DNA of 64,000 nucleotides from Escherichia phage PNJ-6. Under the pieces are notes generated by a model that saw only the letters and a program-made list of their open reading frames with translations, did no database searches and was not told where the DNA came from. Location of the stretch: the sequence record OQ076693, one strand, 5' to 3'. Both the position numbers and the translations under genes were made by a program. Shown here piece by piece: positions 22,794 to 26,337 of this stretch; position 1 is the stretch's first letter, and every line of letters begins with the position of its first letter.

Positions 22794-23061
22794 CGTCTAA
22801 TTTCCTTAATTTATATTGCAACGAGCTAATAATTTCTTCGTTCATTTTAATATACATGTCACGCAAGAAAGATTTTAACCCGTCACGAATAATTGCTAAC
22901 GTATCACCTTTACATAAATTGACCAAATAAGGGTGGTCTAAAGCATCCCAACCTGGCTGATTAGCATACATACCATAGTTTTCTTCCATCATATGATTAA
23001 GACGTTTGATATCTTGGATACGTGATTCAATAGCATCTTTCTGGAGTTGTTTAATATTCAT
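22780..23061 (-). CDS. hypothetical protein
   Basis: 93-aa ORF in the asiA-motA interval. Confidence 0.45.
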   Translation of the reverse strand: MNIKQLQKDAIESRIQDIKRLNHMMEENYGMYANQPGWDALDHPYLVNLCKGDTLAIIRDGLKSFLRDMYIKMNEEIISSLQYKLRKLDDENN

Positions 23062-23522
23062 TAATAAAGGTCCTCTGAATAAAGTTCTTTCTCACTTCCG
23101 CCACGTTCAATACGTACCTGTCCAGCATACGTTGCAATAATCATTGCTTCTTCACGAGTCCAGTAATTAGAGTATTGGTCGATAAAGCCTTGGTCGTCAC
23201 CACAAACTTGTTGCGAGACTAATTGAGGACCAACTATATCAAGTACTTCAGCCATATCTTTAGAGTAATGACGAACTCCAGGAATAACCAGAGTTCCACC
23301 ACTCTTCAATTTAAACCTATTAGCTGCACATACTATAACACGTTGAACTTTTTGGTCATTATTCCAATAGCACGTTTGCCAACAGATTTCAGGAACTTCA
23401 TTCATTATATCATCAGCAGAATAATTATAACCGTAGGACTGGAATTTTTCTGCTAGACTTTCAGGAGTCTCACGAGACAAGGCCAAATCTAATAGCTCTA
23501 AACGTTCTTTAAATGATTTCAT
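23061..23522 (-). CDS. hypothetical protein
   Basis: 153-aa ORF (VIVCAANRF...[13 protein letters not shown]...[11 protein letters not shown]); fold not assignable by eye. Confidence 0.5.
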
Positions 23523-23863
23523 TTAAACCATTCCTTAATACGTTGCCAAATAGATTTTTGTGCTTGTTTATTTACACCAATCGAACGAATAACCGGTTGT
23601 GACTGCTGATATTCTTTATAATCTTCTTTATAGATTTCGTAAGCTGCATCAACAAATGAACTGATCGCTGCCATAAAGTTTTTACGTATACCGCCAGGAG
23701 CTACTCCATTAGGGAATTCAGAATTTTCGCGAATAATTAAATATAACCCAGCTTTAACTTTAACTATAGTTCCAAGATAAGCCCCATGGTACCAAATATC
23801 CCATCCTTCCTGAGTAGGTTCTGCACATTTACGAAGTTCGTTAATAATATTCAGCTTATTCAT
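23519..23863 (-). CDS. hypothetical protein
   Basis: 114-aa ORF, ATGA-coupled to the downstream gene. Confidence 0.5.
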
Positions 23864-23873
23864 TATGTATTCC

Positions 23874-24506
23874 TCACAGTACGTTAGTTACAAGGGTAAT
23901 GATTTCTTTGGACACATTAGGGAAGTCGATGTAAGTATATTTACCACCGATCTTAATCTTAACATCATTTTCAAGAGAAGTAAACAGCTTTGATTCAGTT
24001 TCTGACATGTTGTATGCAAAGATTCTAAGAGAACCATTTCGACGAATTTCGATCTGACGAATACCTAGAACTCGTTTTGCAAATCGAACTTCCAAGTTAC
24101 TACGGTTTTCACCAATTTCTTTAACTTCAACTTTATCTTTAATATTTTCAAAAACAAAGTTTGCTAATTCATGCATTTCAGGAGTAACTCCACGTGCTTT
24201 TCTAGTGTTACGTTTCTGAAGAAGTTCTGGAGCATTTTCTTGGGCAAAGAGGTCTGCAGCTTTTTGGATAATATCCATTGCTTCGCCTGTTGCTATAAGT
24301 CCATCACCAGATTTTTCGACTAAACCTTTCTTAATCAATACACCAATGTTAGAGTTAACAACCGATGCATTGTATTCCGCTTCCAGAGCTTCACGGACGT
24401 TGGCAGCAGTGGTGAAGTTGTTCTTAATGATATAAACCATTATTGCAGCAGTTTTTTCATTCAGAGCGTTTTCAGAAGCTTTGATGATGTAAGTAACTTT
24501 AGACAT
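23874..24506 (-). CDS. motA: middle-transcription activator MotA
   Basis: 210-aa ORF; T4 MotA-like N-terminus (MSKVTYIIKAS...) and conserved region NSNIGVLIKKGLVEKSGDGLI; early promoter upstream. Confidence 0.88.
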   Translation of the reverse strand: MSKVTYIIKASENALNEKTAAIMVYIIKNNFTTAANVREALEAEYNASVVNSNIGVLIKKGLVEKSGDGLIATGEAMDIIQKAADLFAQENAPELLQKRNTRKARGVTPEMHELANFVFENIKDKVEVKEIGENRSNLEVRFAKRVLGIRQIEIRRNGSLRIFAYNMSETESKLFTSLENDVKIKIGGKYTYIDFPNVSKEIITLVTNVL

Positions 24507-24580
24507 TTTATTTCTCCAAATTAGTATTTGTTTTGATAGGTCTATAATATCATGTTTGAAGCAAAAGTAAACTTTATTTT
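24498..24580. repeat. duplicated promoter-leader-start module, copy 1 (motA)
   Basis: About 83 bp nearly identical to 24818-24900, spanning the first three codons (MSK), leader and early promoter. Confidence 0.75.
24544..24572 (-). promoter_or_regulatory. T4-type early promoter for motA (-35 GTTTAC, 17 bp, -10 TATTAT)
   Basis: rc of 24567-24572 is GTTTAC; 17-bp spacer containing TTGCTTC; rc of 24544-24549 is TATTAT; 38 nt upstream of the motA ATG. Confidence 0.6.
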
Positions 24581-24610
24581 GGGCTCTTTTTCCAAAAGCC
24601 CTGGTAAAAT

Positions 24611-24826
24611 TTACAAACTCATTTCTTTAATAAGGCCAATAAGTTTTGCCTTTTTAGAACGAAGCTTTTCTAAATGATGTCCATTTGAACCGCGAACCAC
24701 TAAAGAATTGATTTCAACTTCTAAGAAATTTAATTCTTCAAAAAGTGCTTTACGGGGAGCATTCATACCAGGTTTAACTTTACCAAAACGAGTAGTTGTG
24801 TTTTGGGTTAATTTCATTTTAGACAT
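24611..24826 (-). CDS. hypothetical basic protein
   Basis: 71-aa ORF whose promoter, leader and first codons duplicate those of motA. Confidence 0.5.
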   Translation of the reverse strand: MSKMKLTQNTTTRFGKVKPGMNAPRKALFEELNFLEVEINSLVVRGSNGHHLEKLRSKKAKLIGLIKEMSL

Positions 24827-24900
24827 TTTATTTCTCCAATTTGGTTGTTTTGTTTTGATAGGTCTATAATATCATGTTTGAAGCACATGTAAACTGTTTT
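24818..24900. repeat. duplicated promoter-leader-start module, copy 2 (ORF 24611..24826)
   Basis: Near-identical to 24498-24580 with small indels. Confidence 0.75.
24866..24894 (-). promoter_or_regulatory. T4-type early promoter, duplicate of the motA promoter
   Basis: Near-identical copy of 24544-24572 (GTTTAC, 17 bp, TATTAT) upstream of ORF 24611..24826. Confidence 0.6.
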
Positions 24901-24919
24901 GTGAGAAAAATGCACAAAA

Positions 24920-24935
24920 GGGAGCCGAAGCTCCC
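24920..24935 (-). terminator. hairpin terminator downstream of gene 52
   Basis: GGGAGC-CGAA-GCTCCC; minus strand continues CUUUUGUGCAUUUUU. Confidence 0.55.
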
Positions 24936-25011
24936 TAATCATGTTTGTCCAACCAATACAGCCAAATCACTAGTGCAGCTATTGCACCGAGAAATCCTAA
25001 GGCTAGGGCAC

Positions 25012-26337
25012 TCAAAGTGCCTCCAAGTCTTTAGTGTACTCTGTCACAACATCAGTGGACTTCCAATACTCATTTTCTTCTTTCTTAGCTTTAGCTTCTT
25101 CTGCTAGTTTACGTGCTTCGTCGGAAGTGATATGGAAGATGTTAAGACCTACCAGTTTATCGACATGTTCTTTATACATTTCGATTTGTGCTAGCTCTTC
25201 AGTCAAAGCTTTACGAGTCTTGCCCTGAATCACAATTTCACCTGTAATAACTTTTTTGATGAAGTGTGCCTTAGCAAAAGCAAGTTTAAATGCTTTTTCA
25301 GATTCAAGGATTTTGTTGTCAATACGTTTCTGAACGTAAGTCTTACGGACTTCAACAAAATCTTTGATTAAGTCCACTACGTTATCATAGACCGCTAATT
25401 TACCCTTTTCATTAATCACCGTGATGTTTTGTGAACGACGTTCGATGAGACTAAAATCTTTCATGATTTTTTCATGACGTAGCTCTTCATCATCAGGAAG
25501 CGAGTACTCTTTACGGAACTTCACCTTAAACCCAAAGCCGTGTTCACCACAATCATCTTCCCATGAGATTAGACCTTTGTCTTCCAACGGGTCAAGAACC
25601 TTACTCACATACGTTTCACGGTCGAATTTATATGGGATTTCAGTTATCTGCATTTGAGTGCGAGATGTGAACTTATATGTTCCGTGAATCTCATAACGCC
25701 CATCAACTTCATGTACTTCACCACGGAATTCCGGAAATTCAACTTTTGGCTTAGTGACATTTTTACCTTGAAGAGCTTGTAATACAGCCTTTTTGACTGA
25801 TTTAAAACTATGAGGCAGAATATTTGTTGCGTAACCGGTTGCAATACCAGAGACGCCATTCAAAAGAACTGTCGGAATAATAGGAAGATAGAATTTTGGC
25901 GGAATGTGTTCTTTATCTTCATGAGCTGGAGCATATTCAGTATCTTTATATACGTTATAGAAATTTTTACTTACACGAGCAAAAATATAACGAGATGCCG
26001 CAGCTTTTTGGACTGTTCTAGAACCAAAGTTGCCTTGGCCATCTAACAACGGATAGTTGTTGTTCCATGTGTTAGCCATCAATGCACCTGCATCTTGTGC
26101 AGAAGATTCACCATGGTGATAACCTAAATCTGCAACACCGCCTGCAATTGACGCAAGTTTATGAAATTTTTCTTTATTACCACGAGCCAAATCTAACGCA
26201 CGATGAACCACAAAACGTTGAACCGGCTTAAATCCATCAATCATGTTTGGGATTGCACGGTTTTCAACGGTGTACATCGCATATGCTAAGGCTTCGTTAT
26301 CAATAATACTTTTTAGATTACGAGAATTCAATTGCAT
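25012..26337 (-). CDS. 52: DNA topoisomerase II medium subunit (GyrA-like) gp52
   Basis: 441-aa ORF with GyrA-type N-terminal breakage-reunion region (AYAMYTVENRAIPNMIDGFKPVQRFVVH); T4 gene 52 position. Confidence 0.88.
   Translation of the reverse strand: MQLNSRNLKSIIDNEALAYAMYTVENRAIPNMIDGFKPVQRFVVHRALDLARGNKEKFHKLASIAGGVADLGYHHGESSAQDAGALMANTWNNNYPLLDGQGNFGSRTVQKAAASRYIFARVSKNFYNVYKDTEYAPAHEDKEHIPPKFYLPIIPTVLLNGVSGIATGYATNILPHSFKSVKKAVLQALQGKNVTKPKVEFPEFRGEVHEVDGRYEIHGTYKFTSRTQMQITEIPYKFDRETYVSKVLDPLEDKGLISWEDDCGEHGFGFKVKFRKEYSLPDDEELRHEKIMKDFSLIERRSQNITVINEKGKLAVYDNVVDLIKDFVEVRKTYVQKRIDNKILESEKAFKLAFAKAHFIKKVITGEIVIQGKTRKALTEELAQIEMYKEHVDKLVGLNIFHITSDEARKLAEEAKAKKEENEYWKSTDVVTEYTKDLEAL

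Follow-up and report, generated by a model that had tools for sequence, protein, structure and literature searches.

Two near-identical copies of an early-promoter module precede motA, the gene for the middle-transcription activator, in Escherichia phage PNJ-6 (sequence record OQ076693), and a small gene encoding a basic protein of 71 residues lies between them. Within the 64,000-nucleotide (nt) stretch of this DNA that we analyzed, referred to here as the window, copy A starts motA and copy B starts the 71-residue open reading frame (ORF). We consider it likely that the two repeats represent a single PeSL-type (promoter-early stem-loop) early-promoter cassette present twice, that they flank a dispensable gene and that they exchange by phage homologous recombination. 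The arrangement is an instance of the published PeSL cassettes and not a one-off duplication, a well-populated but ordinary example of its kind. As judged from comparison of related genomes, the exchange appears to be reversible: besides deletion, these genomes show insertion, replacement and gene conversion.

Two copies of one module

A preliminary description of this DNA had proposed two near-identical copies, each with an early promoter, a leader, a Shine-Dalgarno sequence and the codons ATG TCT AAA, ahead of motA and a 71-residue basic ORF, and our analysis bears out each of these elements. Both copies lie on the minus strand. Global alignment from GTTTAC to codon 3 (24572->24498 against 24894->24818) gave 70 identical columns out of 77 with one 2-nt gap, and over the longer spans first proposed 75 of 85 columns are identical. 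A repeat search returned two families split by the 2-nt indel, one of 55 nt at 91% identity and one of 37 nt at 84%, with spacings of 322 and 320 nt. The similarity is concentrated in two perfect blocks. One, of 36 nt (GCTTCAAACATGATATTATAGACCTATCAAAACAAA), has just two occurrences in the window even when as many as three mismatches are tolerated and was absent from all 100 shuffles, while the other, of 22 nt (TTGGAGAAATAAAATGTCTAAA), spans the Shine-Dalgarno sequence, the ATG and codons 2 and 3 in both copies.

The anatomy of the copies corresponds closely to that of a T4-type early promoter, which is defined by GTTTAC at about -36 to -31, TGn and a -10 element with A at -11 and T at -7 (PMC1524935, PMC2988021). 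Both copies carry GTTTAC, a 17-nt spacer and TATTAT; the TGA directly before TATTAT in each makes this an extended -10, and an A-rich UP-like region lies on the 5' side (AAAATAAA for copy A and CACAAAACA for copy B), again as in the published early promoters (PMC1524935, PMC2988021). The Shine-Dalgarno sequence and start codon form the 3' end of the element and read GGAGAAATAAAATG in both copies. The predicted transcription starts, A24859 and A24537, would give leaders of 33 and 31 nt, respectively. Neither leader folds better than its shuffles (z of -0.7 and +0.3), and no Rfam family matched: the only hit, on the terminator hairpin, scored 13.6 bits and so fell below the gathering score of 95.

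The degree of similarity expected between early promoters in general was assessed by comparing the 12 early-type promoter candidates in the window pairwise over 80 nt. The module pair has an identity of 0.87, whereas among the remaining 65 pairs the median is 0.58 and the highest value 0.70. This indicates a true duplication or homogenization beyond the shared promoter consensus.

Presence and absence of the cassette among Mosigviruses

The window belongs to a Mosigvirus, an RB69-like T-even phage. Its region 23800-25100 is 99.4% identical to Escherichia phage HX01 (genus Mosigvirus, RB69 group) and 95-99% identical to about 150 other records. The preliminary description had suggested that the repeats could mediate deletion of the 71-residue gene, to be checked by a search for deletion variants in related genomes, and such variants were found: about half of the approximately 150 Mosigvirus records are 320 bp shorter and have one module fused to motA. 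These genomes align to our 1301-bp query in two pieces spanning 981 bp, the missing 320 bp being one repeat period. The one- and two-module states were scored from the number of aligned pieces and their span, and not from BLAST coverage, in a population survey of GenBank phage records; a pattern scan of IMG/VR gave 8 contigs only. An evenly spaced sample contained 22 one-module and 23 two-module genomes, and the 71-residue protein is encoded at an identity of at least 80% in 76 of the approximately 150 Mosigvirus-type records.

Ten single-module loci were read directly (moskry, JK45, phiC120, G2285, AV113, phi25-307, RPN187, p000y, O157 typing phage 3 and SSE1), and in all ten the module follows the terminator and is fused in register to motA at ATGTCTAAA. 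The type Mosigvirus, RB69, and T4 likewise have no cassette before motA. The two states are mixed within species, as Mosigvirus JS09 includes JS09 with two modules and SSE1 with one, and Mosigvirus mar005p1 includes APCEc01 with two and moskry and p000y with one. They also interleave in neighbor-joining trees of both flanks, where AV113/AV117 and SSE1/UGJNEcP2 form sister pairs. Thus, the underlying event has either been repeated or been transferred repeatedly.

Other genes in the same slot

The 71-residue gene is not the only cargo found between the modules. In phage IME281 the same two modules enclose an unrelated, acidic ORF of 75 residues (MKFKIENEI...; L015, 248-475), in contig L012 they enclose an unrelated ORF of 73 residues (MKTLNINSFF...), and in contig L016 there is nothing between them. 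Contig L010 combines a Tequatrovirus backbone (the end of a T4-type gene 52 and motA.1) with the 75-residue cassette followed by a Dhakavirus-type motA promoter, a mosaic that points to transfer across genera; its upstream T4-type promoter has lost its -35. The junctions vary from case to case. Those of L010 lie at CTATCAA and the Shine-Dalgarno sequence, that of L012 falls at the -10 and that of L016 at the Shine-Dalgarno/ATG; in SSE1 the junction is between the 4-mer that follows the -35 and position -14. Among the ORFs and annotations at the locus, no endonuclease or recombinase gene was found in or beside the cassette. The varying breakpoints argue for general homologous recombination on short identities and not for a site-specific enzyme.

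At least three genera have the motA-upstream slot in common. In Klebsiella phage vB_Kpn_P545 (Marfavirus; L032:1500-1640 and 2220-2520) gene 52 and motA are separated by a 215-residue ORF that has an early-type promoter of its own, distinct from the module; conservation between the P545 motA promoter and leader and the Mosigvirus module is about 83%, and the coding regions are more diverged. The core AAACATGATATTATAGACCTATCAAAACAAAT also drives a 120-residue ORF near gene 32 in Escherichia virus TH15 (Gaprivervirus, L033:1500-1545), which suggests that the promoter variant is dispersed among T-even genomes beyond the motA locus.

Exchange and homogenization between the copies

We compared copies A and B in nine Mosigvirus genomes with two modules, one of them the window. 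Copy A usually combines TTTT after the -35 with the leader AAATACTAATTT, and copy B combines ATGT, ACGT or TTTT at that place with the leader AAAACAACCAAATT. UGJNEcP2 departs from this pattern in having a B-type leader in copy A. Its nearest relative on both flanks, SSE1, has a single module in the B context that, from -14 on, differs at one position from UGJNEcP2 copy A and at three from copy B, which is what a crossover of B with A would produce. For AV113 and AV117 the crossover could not be mapped to a unique point, as the copy-B 4-mer after the -35 (ATGT, ACGT or TTTT) is polymorphic.

The Dhakaviruses JS98, VR5 and CLBP2 have the same arrangement around an orthologous 71-residue gene, providing a comparison across genera. 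Both Dhakavirus copies read GCTTTAAAC...GATACTAT and both Mosigvirus copies read GCTTCAAAC...GATATTAT, such that paralogs within a genome are more alike than orthologs between genera, a signature of concerted evolution. The 3' end of the module offers the clearest case of copying. The Dhakavirus 71-residue gene has its own ribosome-binding site and an MNK start, and Dhakavirus motA reads ...GGAGATTAAAATGTCTAAA; the Mosigvirus 22-nt block stands on both genes and recurs unchanged as the leader of motA in Klebsiella phage P545 (Marfavirus). These matches indicate that in Mosigviruses the native motA leader and first three codons were copied onto the 71-residue gene, changing MNK to MSK. On the 5' side, copy B is flanked by TTTTTCTCACAAAACAGTTTAC, the ortholog of the sequence that adjoins the motA promoter in T4 (TTTTTTCACAAAACGGTTTAC). 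Copy B with the ancestral 5' flank of the motA promoter, and copy A with the native motA leader, form the footprint expected if a circular cassette had integrated by a single crossover within the promoter of motA.

The 71-residue gene

The cargo of the window matches PHROG family phrog_6200 (3e-40), which has no assigned function, and has no Pfam match above the cutoff. Relative to its Dhakavirus orthologs the ratio of nonsynonymous to synonymous divergence (Ka/Ks) is 0.18-0.22, and Mosigvirus-Dhakavirus nucleotide identity is 0.708 for this gene and 0.711 for motA. A Ka/Ks of about 0.2 together with a divergence equal to that of motA indicates that the 71-residue ORF is a real gene. The matching divergence also favors long co-residence over recent import, with the limit that the Ks values (approximately 1.1-1.3 for the 71-residue gene and 1.06 for motA) are near saturation.

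A large protein database held only 8 clusters for this protein, all at 70% identity or above and all close orthologs. The AlphaFold model, with a predicted local distance difference test (pLDDT) score of 76, consists of a disordered basic tail (residues 1-22) and a generic helical hairpin. A fold search of the PDB with this model returned only designed coiled coils and ribosomal S15, at E > 0.5, and in BFVD only the Bp7 ortholog was significant; a weak BFVD match was to a 66-residue protein of Klebsiella phage P545, which was not located when the motA-upstream region of that phage was read. Two environmental contigs carry nonsense alleles of the gene, CAA to TAA at codon 8 in L030 (1441-1470) and TTA to TGA at codon 52 in L031 (1650-1660), and copy B of L030 has lost 2 nt just 3' of the -10. 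From these alleles the gene appears to be decaying in some lineages, and the independent nonsense mutations together with frequent deletion show that it is dispensable.

Stem-loops and predicted expression

A hairpin precedes each copy. The one 5' of copy B (-16.5 kcal/mol, z of -3.5) has the form of an intrinsic terminator, with a stem-loop at 24919-24936 followed by the U-run TTTGTGCATTTTT; the PhAPEC2 and ATK47 records annotate a terminator here, and a homologous hairpin precedes the motA promoter of T4. The hairpin 5' of copy A (-12.2 kcal/mol, z of -2.4) is followed by AAAATAAAG and gave no hit in the terminator scan, and the AAAAUAAAG after it indicates that it is not a canonical intrinsic terminator. 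Its Dhakavirus counterpart, GAGCUCUU-GGAA-AAGAGCUC, retains the pairing through a two-sided change from G-C to A-U and a change from U-G to C-G, and conservation of the stem through such changes argues that the structure matters.

With matching -35, TGnTATTAT, +1 region and GGAG, co-regulation of the 71-residue gene and motA is plausible. Host sigma-70 RNA polymerase would start at both copies immediately after infection, and the 71-residue protein and MotA would both be early products. As the hairpin after the 71-residue gene lacks a U-run, transcripts from copy B probably continue into motA, which would thereby have tandem promoters. MotA is known to be an early product, and the T4 motA mRNA is cut by the RegB nuclease within its Shine-Dalgarno sequence (PMC2988021); strong RegB sites fit the consensus GGAGRAYARAA, and the regB gene occurs in RB69 (PMC3014915). 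Both mRNAs of the window would carry a GGAGAAAUAAAA ribosome-binding site that resembles this motif, with GGAG predicted to be unpaired in both leaders, and would probably be shut off together.

Both promoter spacers also contain the MotA-box core TGCTTCA (24557-24563 and 24879-24885, minus strand; TTTTGCTTCA in copy A). The core is kept as TGCTTTA in Dhakaviruses (TTATGCTTTA in VR5) and as TGCTTTT in a Marfavirus, and T4 has the inverted AAAGCA in the same place. A MotA-dependent middle promoter requires (a/t)(a/t)(a/t)TGCTTtA at 12 +/- 1 bp 5' of the -10 (PMC2988021). This class was ruled out for the two copies, as TGCTTCA lies 7 bp from TATTAT and no TAnnnT occurs 11-13 bp 3' of TGCTTCA; the T4 middle-promoter table has no motA entry. 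TGCTTCA could instead be a site of MotA feedback on the promoter of its own gene. There are 56 copies of TGCTTYA in the full window, where shuffles had 23.7 +/- 5.1, as would fit a genome segment with many middle promoters that depend on MotA.

Comparison with known systems

A PeSL is a composite element in which a stem-loop and an early promoter are joined to a Shine-Dalgarno sequence and ATG; two of them enclose an ORFan, and a close relative has a single chimeric element (PMC2839356, PMC4122927). Such cassettes were described first for RB49/phi1 and later for T4/PST and KVP40/nt-1 (Arbiol 2010, PMC2839356; Comeau, Arbiol and Krisch 2014, PMC4122927). Their crossovers were mapped between the -10, the Shine-Dalgarno sequence and the ATG (PMC2839356, PMC4122927), and excised mini-circles were shown by inverse PCR only for RB49 and phi1 (PMC2839356). 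At the sequence level the motA locus agrees in each structural respect. Its module runs from an upstream stem-loop through A/T-rich sequence and a sigma-70-like early promoter to the Shine-Dalgarno sequence and start codon; two such elements enclose a small ORFan, and close relatives have a single element and no ORFan; crossovers fall between the -10, Shine-Dalgarno sequence and ATG; and alternative ORFs occupy the slot upstream of motA. The hexamers of the T-even PeSL consensus TTTACW-N17-TAYWAT are present as TTTACA in copy B and TTTACT in copy A, with TATTAT in both. In contrast to the published PeSLs, the repeat extends through the first three codons, and one of the partners is the conserved regulator motA and not an ORFan.

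The module is also readily related to the motA promoter of T4, which likewise sits after a terminator that follows gene 52 and motA.1 and shares the GTTTAC -35, TGn, TAYTAT -10, CTATCAA start region, GGAG and ATG TCT AAA. Unlike the locus in the window, T4 has a single copy, no 71-residue gene, and different spacer and leader sequences. Experimental demonstration of promoter activity and RegB cleavage is for T4 only (Uzan et al. 1990, cited in PMC3014915; PMC2988021). A further parallel is the internal-protein (IP) locus of T4, where, as outlined in PMC4122927 (citing Repoila et al. 1994), non-essential small early genes are swapped at a fixed slot bounded by conserved regulatory sequence; the IP locus and its genes are other ones, and according to PMC4122927 no repeat module was defined there. 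Neither PeSL paper refers to the motA locus, the genera Mosigvirus and Dhakavirus or the phrog_6200 cargo; the terms motA, RB69 and JS98 each have 0 occurrences in PMC4122927, as does motA in PMC2839356. A literature search, which was not exhaustive, found no prior description of this locus.

Weighing the explanations

In the mechanism that we favor, the 71-residue gene sits between the original motA promoter and motA itself. By this mechanism, exchange between the copies removes the 320-bp cassette, exchange with related modules inserts or replaces cassettes, and gene conversion keeps the copies alike, having in Mosigviruses placed the Shine-Dalgarno sequence and first three codons of motA onto the 71-residue gene. 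It is extremely improbable that the copies are instead independent promoters that merely converged on the strong T-even consensus and do not recombine. Conservation among T-even early promoters does extend far past the -35 and -10 (PMC2988021, PMC1524935), other promoters in the window have TATTATAGACCTATCAAC-like start regions, and the same core occurs at the unrelated Gaprivervirus locus. Yet none of the 65 other promoter pairs approaches the identity of the module pair, which includes non-consensus spacer, leader and the first three codons; moreover, what natural variants lack is precisely one repeat period, their junction falling within the repeat, and genus-specific substitutions are common to both copies. 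Site-specific movement of the cassette, in which a homing endonuclease or dedicated recombinase would act at one fixed point of the module, is very unlikely. Seg and Mob endonucleases are numerous in T-even genomes, which counts for such a process, but neither an endonuclease nor a recombinase is encoded in or beside the cassette, and the junctions differ among L010, L012, L016 and SSE1.

Less remote, while still unlikely, is a history in which the single-module state is ancestral in Mosigviruses and the cassette was gained in Campbell fashion from a circular PeSL-plus-ORF or from a co-infecting phage. T4, RB69 and the other one-module genomes have the same terminator and promoter context directly 5' of motA, the ancestral 5' flank of copy B and native leader of copy A have the form of a single-crossover footprint, a cassette has moved horizontally into the Tequatrovirus backbone of L010, and all single modules have the B-type leader. 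Against this history, the 71-residue gene is as diverged as motA, which fits long co-residence, and the occurrence of both states within species and in sister genomes calls for repeated events in either direction. Gain of this kind is the same mechanism in reverse and not another mechanism.

Several observations weigh against cassette exchange as we have set it out. The B-type leader found in all 10 single-module Mosigviruses would require that a simple crossover of B with A fell within the last 22 nt, or that the parent had two B-type leaders like UGJNEcP2, and it leaves the polarity of each event, deletion or insertion, unfixed. The -14 site used for SSE1 is the free 'n' of TGn and could mutate repeatedly or be homoplasic, only two substitutions back concerted evolution of the promoter core, and some phages enter the record counts twice, through GenBank and RefSeq. 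Measured from TTTACW the module spacer has 16 nt, one fewer than the 17 of the consensus published for T-even PeSLs; other early-type candidates in the window have spacers of 17 and 18 from GTTTAC. As for expression, promoter activity, read-through and RegB cleavage are predicted for both copies by sequence similarity, and GGAGAAATAAA, which is A-rich with one pyrimidine, matches 5 of the 7 RegB consensus positions after GGAG.

The locus and its neighbors

All genes at the motA locus are on the minus strand, and the order of transcription is gene 52, a 26-residue ORF, the UUCG hairpin, copy B, the 71-residue ORF, the second hairpin, copy A and motA (Table 1). The identities of the two anchoring genes are supported by Pfam matches of their orthologs, to DNA_topoisoIV for gene 52 and to MotA_activ and MotCF for motA. 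The 26-residue ORF occupies the position of the 49-residue motA.1 in T4 and is replaced by a different, 34-residue version in Dhakaviruses and in phage G2285. The latter, a Mosigvirus (L005), carries the Dhakavirus 34-residue ORF together with its hairpin, placing a mosaic boundary just 5' of the module. On the 3' side of motA, two minus-strand ORFs (23061-23522 and 23519-23863) bear the label 'anti-restriction nuclease' in many GenBank records; they correspond to T4 arn.3 and arn.4, hypothetical proteins (Pfam T4_Y16D and Phage_T4_Y16F), and not to arn itself, and the label looks like a propagated annotation error.

Table 1. Features of the motA locus, in window coordinates.
Feature	Coordinates	Strand	Remarks
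Gene 52 (gp52), topoisomerase II medium subunit, 441 residues	25012..26337	-	Locus anchor, upstream neighbor; annotated DNA topoisomerase II in HX01 and others
26-residue hydrophobic (tiny membrane) ORF	24935..25015	-	Overlaps gene 52 stop; annotated CDS at equivalent position in HX01
Terminator-like hairpin AGGGAGC-UUCG-GCUCCCU, then UUUGUGCAUUUUU	24905..24936	-	Upstream PeSL stem-loop; from terminator scan
Module copy B	24818..24894	-	Starts 71-residue ORF
Copy B -35 GTTTAC	24889-24894	-	
Copy B TGA and -10 TATTAT	24866-24874	-	
Copy B predicted +1	A24859	-	-10 set at -12 to -7
Copy B GGAG Shine-Dalgarno	24834-24837	-	
Copy B ATG TCT AAA	24818-24826	-	First codons of 71-residue ORF
71-residue basic ORF, phrog_6200	24611..24826	-	Cargo between modules; isoelectric point 10.35
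Stem-loop GGGCUUUU-GGAAA-AAGAGCCC	24581..24601	-	Downstream PeSL stem-loop; U-tract absent 3'
Module copy A	24498..24572	-	Starts motA
Copy A -35 GTTTAC	24567-24572	-	
Copy A TGA and -10 TATTAT	24544-24552	-	
Copy A predicted +1	A24537	-	-10 set at -12 to -7
Copy A GGAG Shine-Dalgarno	24514-24517	-	
Copy A ATG TCT AAA	24498-24506	-	First codons of motA
motA, middle-transcription activator, 210 residues	23874..24506	-	Annotated MotA in relatives

Implications

A broader proposal, which we regard as unlikely, is that the site 5' of motA is a dedicated cassette-capture slot across T-even genera, with the promoter and leader of the regulator doubling as a recombination site. If that were so, any ORF landing there would acquire the motA program of an immediate-early start, RegB shut-off and possibly MotA feedback through TGCTT(C/T)A, and gene conversion would rewrite the start codons of the captured gene. 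The locus would then be a promoter-built functional analogue of an integron attachment site and not one PeSL among many.

As a member of the PeSL group, the motA locus is a clean and densely sampled natural case of promoter-mediated gene shuffling in T4-type phages, with more than 140 sequenced genomes divided about equally between the two states, and it combines within-species polymorphism, three alternative cargo genes and one cross-genus transfer. It indicates that a sequence used for shuffling can at the same time serve the middle-transcription activator as its working promoter and ribosome-binding site, so that gain or loss of a cassette could change motA dosage. For annotators and phage engineers it carries a warning that the 320-bp segment is unstable and dispensable, and the locus also provides a natural landing site for early-expressed inserts.

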